Source: a virus
Reading direction: 5' to 3' (one strand)
DNA length: 64,000 bases
UHGV virus genome: UHGV-0293664
Of the stretch, positions 5,935-11,734 are shown in pieces (position 1 is the stretch's first letter; the number at the start of each line of letters is the position of its first letter). The notes beneath the pieces were generated by a model. That model ran no database searches. It was not told where the DNA came from and saw only the letters and a program-made list of their open reading frames with translations. Position numbers and translations under genes: made by a program.

Positions 5935-5989
5935 ACTATCTCCTTCTCCTTGTTTTGTCCGATAATAATACCTAAAGTTTATCTGTTTG

Positions 5990-6919
5990 TCAACAATTGT
6001 CTTCTAGAAACTCTACAATATCATGAGAGTACCAGAACCACTCCGTTGCCCCGTCGAAACCTTCGAAGTGGCAGTTGCGATCTGCAAAGACTTTATGCAC
6101 CAATTTTTCAAGCTGCATGGTAGCACACCCCTGTTCGAAAGTAAATACTTTAAGCACGTGAACAGGAAAATTTGTGTTCCTTCTTATGTTGTATAGTCTG
6201 CTTTGTAGATTGATAGTCACCCCAACTTTTATAACCGTGGGAATGGTAAGATCATCAACAAGAAGGTACAGACAGCTCTCTTTAGTACTCTGCCTGAATC
6301 CTGAAGTAGAGCATTCTGGGCAACCGTTACCGCACAGGTGGTTTGCAGGCTGTTGAAGAAACTTACACCCGCAAGACTTGCAGATAATGGTTACAGGAGT
6401 GTGGGTATTCACATACTCCACTTCTGAATAGTCATATATGTCTCCGTGTAGTTGAGTAGCATCCTCTATGAATCTATCTTTAGACTTCCTCATCTTTTTA
6501 GCTGTCGCTCTTTTTCCACACTTGTAGCACCCACCAGCTAAATGATTTGCAACTGTCTGATTGAACTCTCCGTGGATGGGGCAAATAATAGTAACAATGT
6601 CGTTCCTGTTAGAAAAACTTTTTACAAGAGAGTAGTCATACTTTCCCTTGTGCAGTTCTGTTGCCCTTTTTACAAACTCCTCCTTGGACATTCGGAATCT
6701 CTCACTTAACTCCCTGTTCTTACAATCTGGGCATCCTGCGCCTATAAGGTGAGACTTAGGAGTTTTACTAAAAACTGTACCACACTTGTTGCACACTATA
6801 TCCACAGGTGTTGTGTTGTTTTTGTATACAACTTTGGAGTAATCATACTTGCCACCATGCTTATCAGTAGCTTTCTTGATAAACACTTCTTCTCGTGATA
6901 ACTGTTCTCCTAAACGCAT
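5990..6919 (-). CDS. zinc-ribbon-repeat protein with C-terminal T5orf172 (GIY-YIG-like) domain; putative homing endonuclease
   Basis: Three tandem ~65-aa repeats (KYDYS...CxxCG...HLxGxGCPxC) then a C-terminal segment with KVGVT...EKLVHK...GATEWF resembling T5orf172. Confidence 0.5.
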   Translation of the reverse strand: MRLGEQLSREEVFIKKATDKHGGKYDYSKVVYKNNTTPVDIVCNKCGTVFSKTPKSHLIGAGCPDCKNRELSERFRMSKEEFVKRATELHKGKYDYSLVKSFSNRNDIVTIICPIHGEFNQTVANHLAGGCYKCGKRATAKKMRKSKDRFIEDATQLHGDIYDYSEVEYVNTHTPVTIICKSCGCKFLQQPANHLCGNGCPECSTSGFRQSTKESCLYLLVDDLTIPTVIKVGVTINLQSRLYNIRRNTNFPVHVLKVFTFEQGCATMQLEKLVHKVFADRNCHFEGFDGATEWFWYSHDIVEFLEDNC

Positions 6920-6960
6920 CTTAAATAGAGGGTGAATAATATCACCCTCTCTCCTATATA

Positions 6961-7755
6961 TTATAAACCTGCCTCAGGGGTCCATACACCTTTATTACGG
7001 TCAGTCATAAGGCCTAGTGCAAACAGTCTACCAATACCTGAGCGAACCACATCTTCTGGCTCGTCAAAATCTACGATACCAACACCGTTGATTTCGTGCC
7101 TCGTTACGAAGTCGATCAGCCACTGAAGTCCTGAGGTGCCTTTGAGATCGTTCTGTCGTAAGTCTCCCATGCAAATCATTTGTGCATGCTCACCAAGCCG
7201 TGTGGCAATTGCCAAAGCCTCTGCACAGGTTGTCAATTGAAACTCATCAACTAAGATGATGCAACGATCAGAGAAATCTCGACCTCGGATTGTTGCAACC
7301 TCTTGCACCTCGATGCGTCCAGTCTGACCGTCTCCCAATAACGTACTATAAGCACCAGGCCCGAGTCGTTTTTTGAGAGTTTCTAAAATTGATTTTAAGA
7401 AAGGTTCGTTTTTCTGTAGTACACCTCCAGGTTTGAACCCTGTGCCATGGCTCCCACATTCAACATTTGGGCGGCAAACAATAATTCTATCAATCTCGTT
7501 CTTACGAAGCAGGTCTGCAGCATAAGCTGCAGCCATAAACGACTTGCCTGTGCCAAACAGCCCTGTTGCGATCACTAACTGTTTAGTTTTAAGAAGGTGG
7601 AGATAATACTCTTGTTTTTTATTCATCGGTCGGAGAGCTGGAGCGGTGTGCTCTCGTTCGTCAGCAAATTTCTCAGCAGCTTTACGCAGGCGATCAGATT
7701 TGCGAGCCTCTTTAGCTTCATCACGCATGCGTTTTGTTTCTTTAGCTCGACCCAT
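6961..7755 (-). CDS. phoH: PhoH-like ATPase
   Basis: Walker A GLFGTGKSF, Walker-B-like IILVDEFQ, overall PhoH-like layout. Confidence 0.8.
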   Translation of the reverse strand: MGRAKETKRMRDEAKEARKSDRLRKAAEKFADEREHTAPALRPMNKKQEYYLHLLKTKQLVIATGLFGTGKSFMAAAYAADLLRKNEIDRIIVCRPNVECGSHGTGFKPGGVLQKNEPFLKSILETLKKRLGPGAYSTLLGDGQTGRIEVQEVATIRGRDFSDRCIILVDEFQLTTCAEALAIATRLGEHAQMICMGDLRQNDLKGTSGLQWLIDFVTRHEINGVGIVDFDEPEDVVRSGIGRLFALGLMTDRNKGVWTPEAGL

Positions 7756-7793
7756 GTTGGGACTCCTTTCAGATTGAGATGTGTCTGGAACTT

Positions 7794-8144
7794 TTACTGC
7801 AACAGTTTTTCAATAGCCGCTTCCATGCTGCTTGCAACAGCCTGAACTCGGATATTCATCTCTTCTTGGTGGATCAGCTCCTTAAGCTCTTTAATGGTAA
7901 ATTCTTTAGAGAAACCCTCCACCATAATCTTGTGCAAGGCTTCTTGCGTGTCTACTTGCAAGAACTTTTCCAGTTTGTTGGCAGAGGCTTCTAAATCAGC
8001 CCGAATACGAGGGTCATCTGTGCGATTCAGCATTAGGCGTAAACCATCAAGATTAGTGGAAATAGCGTCTGCATGTTGAGTAACTAACCGTGGCAAAATG
8101 AGATCTACAAACTTATTAGCTAAATCGATACGTTCTTGTGTCAC
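7794..8144 (-). CDS. hypothetical protein (116 aa)
   Basis: ORF. Confidence 0.4.
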   Translation of the reverse strand: MTQERIDLANKFVDLILPRLVTQHADAISTNLDGLRLMLNRTDDPRIRADLEASANKLEKFLQVDTQEALHKIMVEGFSKEFTIKELKELIHQEEMNIRVQAVASSMEAAIEKLLQ

Positions 8145-8283
8145 TGTTGCACCCCCTCTTCATCCTCATAATGTTTCTTTTCACGCTTGTGTTTTTTCTT
8201 AAGCTCAAGCGCAATCTCTTTTTTGTACGCCTTCTTCAAGGCTTTTTTAGCCATTTGGCACCTCCTCTGCTTTCATTACGCTA

Positions 8284-8313
8284 ATTATAACCAACTTAAC
8301 AAAGCTTTGTCAA
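8284..8313 (-). promoter_or_regulatory. sigma70-like promoter (minus strand)
   Basis: Minus-strand TTGACA (8313..8308), 18-nt spacer, TATAAT (8289..8284). Confidence 0.45.
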
Positions 8314-8316
8314 CAA

Positions 8317-8790
8317 TTAGTCAACCTGAACCCAACCGCCTGCTGTCTTTTTAAACATTCTTTGGTTATCACTACCTCTGAAGGGTTTTTTGGTTGGGTT
8401 ATCTTTCTCGTACTTACCATCCATAATGTAATCGACACTATCTTTAATGTGATCGGGAACCTCTTCAAACAAATACCCTGTGTACACCCAGATAGTTTTT
8501 GTGTTGCCGAAGCGTTCACGGATAGCGCGAATAATCGAGTACATACCATCAATATTATAAGGCGCTAAAGGTTCGCCACCGCATAATGTAACGCCAGTAA
8601 TATGTTTCGGCTCTACAGAGTGAAGTATACTCTCAATAGTGTCATTTGTTAACGGTTCCCCTTTAGCTGGTGACCAAACACTTTTGTTTTGGCAACCGAC
8701 GCAGTGATGTGGGCAACCAGAACAGAACACCGTTGTCCTAATGCCTGGGCCGTCAACCATACTACACTCTATAATATTAACAACATTCAT
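8317..8790 (-). CDS. nrdG: anaerobic ribonucleotide reductase activating protein (radical SAM)
   Basis: CSGCPHHCVGCQN radical-SAM CxxxCxxC cluster; size and position next to nrdD. Confidence 0.8.
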   Translation of the reverse strand: MNVVNIIECSMVDGPGIRTTVFCSGCPHHCVGCQNKSVWSPAKGEPLTNDTIESILHSVEPKHITGVTLCGGEPLAPYNIDGMYSIIRAIRERFGNTKTIWVYTGYLFEEVPDHIKDSVDYIMDGKYEKDNPTKKPFRGSDNQRMFKKTAGGWVQVD

Positions 8791-9022
8791 TCCTTATCCT
8801 CTTTGAGGTAGGGATATTCAGGCCACAATAAGCTCGATCTAAGAAAACAGCTTCTTCCCCTCTGGAATCGGTAGATCTATAATACCCATCACCATGGTAA
8901 CTAACGAACCAGTAGCACCCATCATCGCTTTCTACTGTTGTGGCTCTGTCCGAATGAAAGATAATTTCGTAATCCTTACCGAGTGTAAACCATCTGTTAG
9001 CTTTTACACAGACACCTATCAT
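8777..9022 (-). CDS. hypothetical protein (81 aa)
   Basis: ORF between nrdD and nrdG. Confidence 0.35.
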   Translation of the reverse strand: MIGVCVKANRWFTLGKDYEIIFHSDRATTVESDDGCYWFVSYHGDGYYRSTDSRGEEAVFLDRAYCGLNIPTSKRIRNECC

Positions 9023-9173
9023 AAGGAACCTCTCTTCTGTGGTGCGCTTCTATTCAAGATAGACCTATAAAAGTCCATTTGATGAAGCCGTATAACTTTT
9101 TATACTTACGCTTCAGTGCTAACAATTTTATCTTGATTTTCTTGATAGATTTCCGCATTTCGACCCCTTATGC

Positions 9174-9290
9174 TTATAAGTACTCCGCGTCGCATTCAGG
9201 ACAATGCCAAATAAAATCGTCCAGTGCCTTGCACCAACGAAGATTGCAACGACAACCACACTTGCAAATTTTATAAATACCTTTAGACAT
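9174..9290 (-). CDS. small Cys-rich (zinc-ribbon-like) protein, 38 aa
   Basis: Not in the ORF track (under 60 aa); AGGAGG six nt upstream of ATG; translation MSKGIYKICKCGCRCNLRWCKALDDFIWHCPECDAEYL. Confidence 0.3.
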   Translation of the reverse strand: MSKGIYKICKCGCRCNLRWCKALDDFIWHCPECDAEYL

Positions 9291-9353
9291 ACTGTACCTC
9301 CTAGCTCGCTGTGTGTCAATAATATGCCACATCCTTGTGGCTTTTGTCAAGTA

Positions 9354-10562
9354 TCAGCAACTACAACTTCCATAGTGCTTAACTCTCTCGATAACTTCCG
9401 CTTGCTTACCTTTATTATAAGGACGGGAGTTAGGACTGGAAAGGTATCCAGACACACGTCGAATTACACTGATCGTTCCCTCTTCATGGTTTCCACACTC
9501 TGGGCATACAAAGCCTTTAGCTGTTGCACTAAACTCACCAGAGAAACCACACTTGAGACATTTATCCACAGGTTGGTTAATACCAAAATACATAATGTGT
9601 TTATACCCGAAGTCAACAAGAGCCTCTAAAGCATCTAAGTTGTTTTTCAGATTTGGTGTCTCTACATATCCGATGTTGCCACCAGAGGAGATCATAGCAA
9701 AACCTTCCTCATACTTCCACTTATCAAAAGGAGAGCTATTGATCCATACTGGCTGATGGAAACTGTTGGTGAGATATTCATGCTCGTGCTTCAACACTTC
9801 AGGATATTCACGATCCAGACAGGTTGCAGCTTTATAGCATAGACTCTCAGAAGGGGTGCCGTACAAGCTAAACGCTAGTCTACTTTCCTTCTTGTATCGC
9901 TCACAAGCATCTCTCATGTGCTGAAGGATTCCAAGAGCTAAAGCCTTGTCACCCTCTCTGCCCAAAATCTGACAGGTTTCATACACACCAATATACCCAA
10001 TGCTGATGGAAGCGTACCCGTCATAGAAGAGTTTATCAATACTTTCTTCAGGATCCAGGCGAGCAAGAGCGCCTTCACACCACATGATGGGGTTCTGCCC
10101 TGCCTTTGTTCCTTTTAGACGGTTAACCCTTACAAGGTGAGCCTCGTATGCAAGATCCAAGTATTCGTCAAGAACTGCAAAGAAATCAACACCTTCCGTC
10201 TTAGCTTTTGCCGCAATCATTGGCAGGTTAAGGCTAACAACACCCAAGTTGAATCTGCCAAGGTATTTCTCCTCACCTGTTTCCAAGTCATTGTATTTGC
10301 TAAGAAAACTCCTGCAACCCATGCTAGTTACTTTGCCATCTGTCGAGCCTGTCACTTTTCTATTTAGTGGTACAGATACGAAGTCAGGGTAGATACGTTC
10401 TGCACAGCATTCCAGAGCTAATCGTTTCAAATCATAGTTAGGATCCCCAGGGTTCATGTTGACACCCTCTTCCAGGAAGAACAGCACTTTAGGGAACACA
10501 GGTGTAATACGTTCTTCACCAAGACCCATTTTGTGGACTTTCAAGTAGTTTTTGGTAATCAT
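9354..10562 (-). CDS. nrdD: anaerobic ribonucleoside-triphosphate reductase, C-terminal part (exon 2 of split gene)
   Basis: C-terminal Zn ribbon CLKCG...CPECG and glycyl-radical motif RVSGYLSS; lacks the N-terminal half found in the upstream ORF. Confidence 0.8.
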   Translation of the reverse strand: MITKNYLKVHKMGLGEERITPVFPKVLFFLEEGVNMNPGDPNYDLKRLALECCAERIYPDFVSVPLNRKVTGSTDGKVTSMGCRSFLSKYNDLETGEEKYLGRFNLGVVSLNLPMIAAKAKTEGVDFFAVLDEYLDLAYEAHLVRVNRLKGTKAGQNPIMWCEGALARLDPEESIDKLFYDGYASISIGYIGVYETCQILGREGDKALALGILQHMRDACERYKKESRLAFSLYGTPSESLCYKAATCLDREYPEVLKHEHEYLTNSFHQPVWINSSPFDKWKYEEGFAMISSGGNIGYVETPNLKNNLDALEALVDFGYKHIMYFGINQPVDKCLKCGFSGEFSATAKGFVCPECGNHEEGTISVIRRVSGYLSSPNSRPYNKGKQAEVIERVKHYGSCSC

Positions 10563-10870
10563 TCTACCAAAGACCGAGGTATCCAGTCCTAAACTTAATG
10601 TGATAAAAGGGGTTTGCGGTCCCCACCCTTATGTTTCCACAAGGCCAGACTATCTCTTGCCTGAAATCACACCGTGTGATTCTTAATCAGACCTCTGCGT
10701 TTCGGAATCTTCCATAATCCCTACACCAAAAGGTTAGTCGTTACAACCGCCTCACTCCTTGTGAAGCTAGTCACGGGATTGGCATAGCTTTCGCCTTAGC
10801 GTTCCCCGTTAGCCAGCGATCAGCTGACCCCTCATACTGAGGTTAGCAGAGTTTTAAAACGGCCAGTTTG
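10563..10870 (-). ncRNA. putative ORF-less group I intron interrupting nrdD
   Basis: About 310 nt GC-rich, stop-dense insert between the two nrdD ORFs; minus-strand GACUA/UAGUC-type elements; T4 nrdD (sunY) has an intron. Confidence 0.55.
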
Positions 10871-11734
10871 TTAACCGTTGACAGAAGTTAACGTATTTAT
10901 TTGATAGAGCAAAGTCTGCATGCTGTCAAATACGTCTTTATCTGTCATTTGCATTGCAACAGTCTCAGCATCTGGCAACCAATGTTCCTGGCAAAATTTA
11001 AGGTTCTTCTCATAGGTCGCTTCAGCATACTGTGCCAGATAATGATCAATATGGCTCATGGTCTGACCTCCATATTGAGCACTAGCTACTGCACTAGAGA
11101 TTTGGCTAAGGATTGTTGTTGCAACCCCTATTGACTTCGGCTTACTGACATGGGCGTTACCAATGTTGAATCCGTTTTCCAACATATCTGGATAGTTTAC
11201 CAAACAACAGTTTGTTAACGGACTGATCAAGTAGTCAAGATCATGCACATGGATGAAGCCTTTATTGTGCTCTTCTGAGACACGGTTTGGCAGGATCTGT
11301 GTTGATGCAAGGTGTTTGCTAAGGATGCCTGCAAGCAGGTCACGATGAGTGTGTACATGATTGGTAGGCTTATTTGCGTTTTCTTTTGTAAATTCATCAC
11401 AAGTGCGATCCAAGAAGCCACTAATATCTGCAAGCAGTTTTCCACCTGCCTCTCTGTTATTATCTCTTGTCTGCCTATACTGGATGTATTCTCTGGCTGC
11501 ACATTTTAAACCCATATCCATAAGAGCGTCTTCAACAAGGATATGGATATTTTTTACAGAGATCGTGCACTGGTCGGTTGGTAGATTGTTAGCAACAACT
11601 TCATTAACCGCGCAGGCGATCCGGTAAGCTTCTTCTTCAGTATGTCCAGACTCAAGTAAGGCGGACTCTGCCGCCTTGATCACCTTAATTCCGTTATAGA
11701 CCTCTTCTCTACCGTCCCGTTTTACAACTTTCAC
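10871..11734 (-). CDS. nrdD: anaerobic ribonucleoside-triphosphate reductase, N-terminal part (exon 1, ATP-cone)
   Basis: N-terminal ATP-cone-like MKVVKRDGREEVYNGIKV; colinear with the downstream C-terminal ORF. Confidence 0.8.
   Translation of the reverse strand: MKVVKRDGREEVYNGIKVIKAAESALLESGHTEEEAYRIACAVNEVVANNLPTDQCTISVKNIHILVEDALMDMGLKCAAREYIQYRQTRDNNREAGGKLLADISGFLDRTCDEFTKENANKPTNHVHTHRDLLAGILSKHLASTQILPNRVSEEHNKGFIHVHDLDYLISPLTNCCLVNYPDMLENGFNIGNAHVSKPKSIGVATTILSQISSAVASAQYGGQTMSHIDHYLAQYAEATYEKNLKFCQEHWLPDAETVAMQMTDKDVFDSMQTLLYQINTLTSVNG

Follow-up and report, generated by a model that had tools for sequence, protein, structure and literature searches.

A minus-strand gene in the window, a 64-kb stretch of DNA from an rV5-like Vequintavirus, probably encodes a free-standing homing endonuclease of the T5orf172 family that would cut the phoH 3' end/P121 promoter region of related phages lacking the gene. 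The gene is present or absent at one site among close relatives, is linked to a diverged flank that includes most of phoH, and has passed with that flank from one phage backbone to another. This is the population-genetic signature of a homing endonuclease gene, and as read from the sequences it favors the suggestion of the earlier note that the gene specifies a homing endonuclease. Matches to T5orf172, DUF4379 and DUF723 likewise support the modular plan proposed there, a putative DNA-recognition array fused to a putative nuclease. The features are collected in Table 1.

Table 1. Features of the nuclease gene and its surroundings, in window coordinates.
Feature	Position	Strand	Basis or detail
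Sigma-70 promoter-like site TTGACA-17-TATTAT (11/12), for downstream gp116-like/clpP genes	5965..5993	-	Equals rV5 P121
Putative homing endonuclease, complete ORF	5990..6919	-	PHROG 681 match; 98% identical to P0001 and 7 phage records
T5orf172 / GIY-YIG-fold nuclease domain (aa 214-309)	5993..6280	-	Invariant Y218, K231, G233, R241, E293
Zn-finger repeat 3 (aa 145-206; IYDYS; C180-x2-C183 + C200-x2-C203)	6302..6487	-	Self-alignment
Zn-finger repeat 2 (aa 77-137; KYDYS; C113-x2-H116 + C131-x2-C134)	6509..6691	-	Self-alignment; DUF723 match aa 99-134
Zn-finger repeat 1 (aa 8-69; KYDYS; C43-x2-C46 + C63-x2-C66)	6713..6898	-	Self-alignment; DUF4379 match aa 29-69
9-bp GC-rich hairpin, between phoH stop and nuclease ATG	6927..6950	-	Analogous hairpins after phoH in rV5, L005, L006
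Mobile cassette: nuclease gene and diverged 3' ~650 nt of phoH	6004..7612	-	Delimited against gene-less relatives
Chimeric phoH (264 aa)	6961..7755	-	Codons 1-48 rV5-type, 49-264 foreign

The open reading frame is complete, with an ATG start and 309 codons followed by a stop. Three consecutive repeats had been described in the protein, and self-alignment bears them out: the units are about 61-68 aa long, and the repeat pairs give local BLOSUM62 scores of 112-165 as compared to 23-24 +/- 4.5 in shuffles (z = 20-31), so that the triplication is not due to chance. Each repeat pair shares 29 identical residues in local alignment, and all three repeats conform to the pattern F-I-x2-A-x3-H-x2-(K/I)-YDYS-x-V-x-Y-x5-V-x-I-(I/V)-C-x2-(C/H), continued as G-x-F-x-(K/Q)-x4-H-L-x-G-x-G-C-x2-C. 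The finer points of the original description hold in part; i.e. KYDYS is found in repeats 1 and 2 but is replaced by IYDYS in repeat 3, and two Cys pairs are found in repeats 1 and 3, whereas the first pair of repeat 2 is of the C-x2-H form, the commonest first knuckle in this repeat family (consensus 'IICPxHG'). The triplet was also said to be visible in the DNA; its location is correct (about 6302-6898 vs. 6304-6895 as claimed) but the DNA-level signal is weak. A tandem repeat in the DNA was in fact rejected because Tandem Repeats Finder detects none in the repeat region and a second repeat search yields matches of 12-27 nt only; when aligned, the repeat DNAs are 51-53.5% identical vs. 46-48% +/- 1.8 in shuffles. 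The triplication is thus ancient and visible in the protein only, and the impression gained from the DNA stems from a recurring TATGAYTAYTC word that encodes YDYS, together with the Cys codons.

Pfam profiles identify the repeats as DUF4379, a "probable treble clef zinc finger" (E = 3.3e-9, two stretches), and DUF723 (E = 3.5e-5), placing at least one finger of the CapR/DUF723/DUF4379 group on the non-nuclease side of the protein. The CapR homology domain model (PF21817) falls below its gathering score (12.7 bits vs. 24.2, E = 0.15); judged by profile, the CapR domain is related to these fingers, yet the array is not a PF21817 member by that model. In an AlphaFold2 model of the protein made with eight homologues, the domains are confidently predicted and the linkers poorly so (aa 136-144 and 204-212), with a pTM of 0.35, suggesting that the domains act as independent beads. 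A single repeat modeled by itself (pLDDT 92.3, pTM 0.75) displays an N-terminal helix, a beta-hairpin bearing the first ligand pair, and then a C-terminal helix with the second ligand pair in its first turn. The predicted finger fold is treble-clef-like, with the first pair on the beta-hairpin knuckle and the second at the N-terminus of the helix, and the term "zinc ribbon" applied in the earlier note is imprecise; the two knuckles and three-stranded sheet of a ribbon are not seen in the models, the Pfam designation of DUF4379 is that of a treble clef, and TFIIB/TFIIS-type ribbons are not among the listed structural matches of the finger model.

The solved structures that resemble the phage finger are kinetoplastid mitoribosome assembly factors only (PDB 6sga_Fd and 6yxx_E2), namely mt-SAF33 and a multi-repeat protein, the latter being "DUF4379 domain-containing" in the text of its PDB entry. 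This is an unexpected phyletic link for a putative phage DNA-binding module. The mitoribosomal DUF4379 structures also suggest a quite different role, in which the fingers would bind RNA, as in the trypanosome factors, and the phage protein would act on RNA or on the ribosome; this is regarded as very improbable.

Assignment of the C-terminal domain to the T5orf172/GIY-YIG group, proposed in the earlier note, is borne out by Pfam profile search. PF10544 (T5orf172, GIY-YIG clan) matches aa 226-302 with E = 2.6e-9 (37.9 bits vs. a cut-off of 20), the sister model MUG113 matches with E = 1.7e-7 (32.2 bits vs. a cut-off of 22.3), and the whole protein matches phrog_681 "endonuclease" in PHROGs with E = 1.8e-66. 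The domain displays the GIY-YIG alpha/beta fold, and Y218, K231-x-G233, R241 and E293 (in "TEWF") are invariant in eight homologues down to 42% identity. On the basis of their order and spacing (G233 to R241, 8 residues; R241 to E293, 52 residues) these likely correspond to the GIY, YIG, Arg and Glu positions of the fold; the spacing in I-TevI, G19 to R27 and R27 to E75, is comparable. The protein thus has a conserved catalytic-type Arg and Glu, the latter presumably equivalent, by this sequence-based correspondence rather than by superposition, to Odn E180 and I-TevI E75. A sequence search of the PDB with the protein yields a chance-level L37e match only (E = 0.12), and a search of the NCBIfam profiles yields no match. 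PADLOC finds a weak match to PDC-S57 alone (E = 1.4e-4), confined to the T5orf172 part, and a reading of the gene as a defense system was dropped on that account.

Homologues of the protein have three, four or five repeats. In PHROGs, the repeats taken by themselves match the repeat-only phrog_4605 as well as phrog_559 (annotated "HNH endonuclease"), which shows the finger array to be a shuffled module. Two metagenomic contigs, L005 and L006, encode three-repeat homologues (P0075 and P0072) that are 54-55% identical to the window protein. Identity to the L005 homologue is 71% in the nuclease domain vs. 46% in the finger array, arguing for continued constraint on the catalytic part. The public copy in phage SophiaRose (SophiaRose_123) is annotated "putative GIY-YIG nuclease family protein", and tblastn detects no paralogue of the gene elsewhere in the window. 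The strongest metagenomic matches, among P0002-P0120, are to 420-540-aa proteins in which Pfam finds multiple DUF4379/DUF723 repeats only and no recognizable nuclease domain; P0120 has DUF559 where T5orf172 would be. Long repeat-only proteins of unassigned role are abundant and the finger array is widely shuffled.

A 5.5-kb segment containing the gene has 90-99% identical counterparts in 124 phage records, and the nuclease protein is encoded in about seven of these, at 97.7-98.4% identity. This sporadic presence is found close to essential and nucleotide-metabolism genes: phoH, nrdG, nrdD and clpP are neighbors, with both nrdG and nrdD within 3 kb. In genomes that are otherwise collinear, a single precise site is found in both occupied and empty form, being empty in rV5, WalterGehring, Mangalyan and phiWec196 and occupied in SophiaRose, phiWec191, navn and C2. 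In rV5 and most relatives ~100 nt separate phoH from the gp116-like gene, and within these lie a hairpin and the annotated sigma-70 promoter P121. The nuclease gene fits between the terminator-like hairpin of phoH and the -35 box of the next promoter, such that its TGA stop is inside TGTTGACA, the -35 box of the P121-equivalent promoter; this promoter-like site, read from 5993 to 5965 on the minus strand, is the best in the region. The L005 and L006 homologues are found in the matching slot (phoH, HEG, gp116-like gene, clpP) of a lineage whose ClpP is 60% and whose gp116-like protein is 35% identical to that of the window. The L005 ORF too begins beyond the phoH hairpin and ends ...TGT TGA CA, forming the same box, so that an ORF end of ...TGT TGA within the -35 box is common to the two lineages. 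An empty-site counterpart for the L005/L006 lineage was not found, since the phage collection has no member of that lineage, the best DNA identity being ~70%. In the related genus Certrevirus, a promoter consensus that contains TGTTGAC has been described (PMC7344957, Figure 7 legend). The C2 sequence belongs to the "Campylobacter phage C2/C5" entries (L010 = MG065655.1; MG065659.1), UNVERIFIED records with C. jejuni given as host; these are classed as Vequintavirus and over the present region share ~97% identity with rV5-like phages of E. coli, and the C. jejuni label is doubtful.

At the other end of the gene, the hairpin that follows phoH has the stem AGAGGGUGA/UCACCCUCU (MFE -17.8 kcal/mol in its 76-nt context, z = -2.6), with GGAG directly 5' of the stem and 7 nt between the stem and the nuclease ATG. 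No strong Shine-Dalgarno sequence is found at the normal distance from this ATG. The GGAG-hairpin-ATG arrangement may be a split Shine-Dalgarno brought into range, or else a phoH terminator accompanied by weak translation of the HEG; split Shine-Dalgarno sequences bridged by a hairpin have been reported for T4 genes 38 and 25. No promoter of the nuclease gene's own is predicted on the minus strand between phoH and the ATG, and read-through from the phoH transcript is therefore assumed.

Because the TGA stop lies inside the P121 -35 box, any binding of the protein to the site of its own insertion would place it on the promoter. This raises the question of domestication; i.e. with its HEG architecture kept, the protein could now work for the phage and not for its own spread, either as a site-specific repressor at or near P121, in the manner of I-TevI and PLE CapR, or, like ICP1 Odn, as a weapon that cuts competing phages or satellites. 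The family offers precedents in CapR (PMC8096241) and Odn (PMC8263062), the weak PDC-S57 match points in the same direction, and according to Barth et al. bioinformatics cannot tell the two cases apart (PMC10448857, Discussion). However, one would expect a useful regulator to be conserved, and the gene is found in only ~6% of close relatives. None of the catalytic-type residues has been lost, making a pure repressor role unlikely, and the N-terminus consists of typical HEG zinc fingers without a RepA_N-like captured domain. Moreover, exclusion of co-infecting relatives that lack the gene would by its mechanism be homing. Domestication is thus considered quite improbable, and a mobile homing endonuclease is preferred.

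The segment that distinguishes carriers from gene-less relatives extends well into phoH. Homology to rV5 stops at 6003 and resumes at about 7612, and the cassette in between replaces about 680 nt of rV5 with the nuclease gene, a 41-nt spacer containing a different hairpin, and the 3' ~650 nt of phoH. The resulting PhoH is 98% identical in amino acids to that of rV5 over codons 1-48 but 51% identical over codons 49-264, and the foreign 3' block is ~55% identical to rV5 in its DNA. Among carriers this block is 100% identical as protein and differs by 10-11 synonymous changes. Its Walker B-type motif is DEFQ vs. DEAQ in rV5, L005 and L006, and it has one additional residue in the loop after "RPNVECGSHG" and another at the C-terminus. 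A tblastn search of 50,697 phage records reveals no PhoH more than 52% identical in amino acids outside the seven carriers, and the donor of the block is therefore unsampled. The L005/L006 lineage was considered as donor and ruled out, since its homologues adjoin an rV5-type phoH (85% identity). The same arrangement in L005/L006 argues that the diverged phoH is not required for carriage of the nuclease, and that the block could be a mere passenger instead of an allele conferring immunity. Gene and diverged block are found together in the same seven records and neither is found alone in any record.

Mapping of SNPs shows that the right flank of the window cassette (7618-9320) has no mismatches over 1.7 kb to phiWec196, which lacks the gene, whereas the cassette is 99% identical to carriers whose own right flanks are ~97% identical and become strongly diverged beyond 8400. 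The crossover, at 7615-7645, is at the edge of the diverged block. A carrier-type cassette joined to a phiWec196 flank at this point demonstrates that the cassette has moved between backbones by recombination; a double-strand break made by this enzyme may have started the transfer. All carriers share the deep junctions, so that the chimeric cassette apparently arose once, and its later spread could have been by ordinary homologous recombination and not by nuclease-driven homing.

Comparison of the window with three carriers yields 4 synonymous and 5-6 non-synonymous codon differences in the nuclease gene, vs. 10-11 synonymous and 1 non-synonymous in phoH, and the five non-synonymous changes shared among the comparisons are all in the finger repeats. 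This contrast is in line with a selfish gene on which host-level constraint is weak, beside a phoH under purifying selection; the non-synonymous excess, resting on 9-10 codons only, could equally reflect decay. An inactive or decaying HEG remnant, kept by linkage to the functional foreign phoH and moved passively by homologous recombination, would be in keeping with the non-synonymous to synonymous ratios of about 5:4 in the nuclease gene and 1:10 in phoH, with the confinement of all five shared changes to the putative DNA-binding repeats, with the identical junctions of all carriers that point to a single origin, and with the absence of a strong Shine-Dalgarno at normal distance from the ATG. 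On the other hand, weak translation signals are usual for HEGs, e.g. the T4 seg/mob genes, the ORF is intact and full length in all carriers examined, and the catalytic-type residues and all zinc ligands are intact. The higher identity of the nuclease domain than of the repeats to the L005 homologue (71% vs. 46%) also argues against decay. A remnant is therefore judged improbable, and a functional homing endonuclease remains the preferred interpretation.

The neighboring nrdD region has distinct features of its own. The nrdD gene is split into two minus-strand ORFs, 9354..10562 (C-terminal, 402 aa) and 10871..11734 (N-terminal, 287 aa), and within the gap the Rfam group I intron model matches over its full length at 10627-10883 (29.2 bits against a gathering score of 50, E = 2.2e-5); nrdD is annotated as a two-piece join in the WalterGehring record, and the gap is probably an ORF-less self-splicing intron. 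Within the C-terminal ORF, a stretch at 9483-9611 on the minus strand, the sole other tblastn hit of the nuclease protein in the window, resembles the first finger repeat (39.6% over 48 aa, E = 0.037), which may be a chance likeness between Cys-rich motifs. At ~8400-9320, when the window is compared with L003, L007, L008 and L010, the carriers SophiaRose, phiWec191, navn and C2 display a second strongly diverged block with ~45-60% mismatches per 200 nt. In SophiaRose another "GIY-YIG nuclease" gene, SOPHIAROSE_117 (386 aa), adjoins nrdD, and WalterGehring and Mangalyan, which lack the gene described here, have 330-386-aa genes at this second site near nrdD. The window is without the second insertion or diverged block and is identical to phiWec196 at ~8400-9320. 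The cluster of nucleotide-metabolism genes is a hot spot at which several insertions of this kind are found.

A mechanism for the homing endonuclease can be proposed by analogy with the related proteins that have been studied. The three tandem DUF4379/DUF723-type fingers, held on flexible linkers, would bind DNA and read an extended asymmetric site, and the C-terminal T5orf172 domain of GIY-YIG fold would cut nearby. In a mixed infection with a relative lacking the gene, the likely target would be the phoH 3' end/P121 promoter region of that relative, and recombinational repair from the carrier genome would copy in the nuclease gene and the adjacent phoH allele together with a variable length of flank; the gene may still home at present. 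Immunity of the carrier genome itself would come from disruption of the site by the insertion and/or from the low identity of its phoH 3' block (only ~55% in DNA). A possible, though doubtful, extension is that the moving unit is a two-part "replacement drive" in which the nuclease targets the resident rV5-type phoH 3' end and the cassette brings a functional phoH that resists cleavage. If so, the HEG would force wholesale allele replacement of a conserved phage gene, the incoming phoH allele would derive from an unsampled distant phage lineage and be under strong purifying selection, and the protein would be a naturally occurring array of three DUF4379 fingers in which each module might be assigned its DNA subsite.

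The literature already covers this architecture, the family and the probable mechanism, and near-identical genes have been deposited. The value of the present gene is as a clean example of a T5orf172 HEG outside the vibriophage systems in which the family was studied, with nucleotide-precise insertion, a stop codon in a -35 box, a linked foreign phoH and a backbone crossing resolved at the SNP level. Since rV5-like phages are included in phage-therapy collections, knowledge of HEG-driven mosaicism between isolates would also be of practical use.

Of 229 T5orf172 HEGs surveyed, 200 contain one or more CapR/DUF723/DUF4379 fingers, with several in many of them, as "beads on a string"; repeat number shifts by recombination, and the genes lie close to essential genes, ribonucleotide reductase among them, and at the boundaries of exchanged blocks (Barth, Dunham & Seed 2023, PMC10448857). 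Repeated fingers N-terminal to T5orf172 are thus the typical published layout and not the unusual organization that the earlier note had supposed. Like the ICP1 gp165/gp174-type HEGs, the present protein has related N-terminal zinc fingers followed by a C-terminal T5orf172 domain, and it shares with the surveyed genes a variable repeat number (3-5 here), a ribonucleotide reductase neighborhood, a position at the edge of an exchanged block and a sporadic distribution; it agrees with them in every feature tested. It differs in its host phage group, the rV5-like Vequintavirus, in that its fingers score as DUF4379/DUF723 and not as CapR, and in its slot, from the phoH hairpin to the P121 -35 box, with the linked chimeric phoH. 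The terms rV5, Vequintavir and phoH do not occur in the main text of that survey (PMC10448857).

The T5orf172 enzyme Odn (Gp88) of ICP1 cuts DNA in vitro and is inactivated by E180A (PMC8263062). The present protein likewise has a T5orf172 catalytic domain with conserved Arg and Glu; however, Odn is origin-directed, having captured a RepA_N targeting domain, and attacks a satellite, whereas the protein described here has the ancestral zinc-finger array and behaves as a selfish insertion. The PLE CapR finger, for which Cys-dependent, sequence-specific DNA binding has been shown by experiment (PMC8096241), is a related zinc-finger DNA-binding domain. Unlike the present protein, CapR is a repressor without a nuclease domain, and the CapR model reaches E = 0.15 only in the array. 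In the Seg proteins and I-TevI the nuclease is N-terminal and the DNA-binding part, made of NUMOD/HTH elements and one small zinc finger, is C-terminal (described in part in PMC10448857). Compared to SegA-G, the free-standing GIY-YIG HEGs of T4-like phages, and to the intron-encoded I-TevI, the order of the parts is reversed in the rV5-like protein, and DNA binding is assigned to three DUF4379-type fingers.
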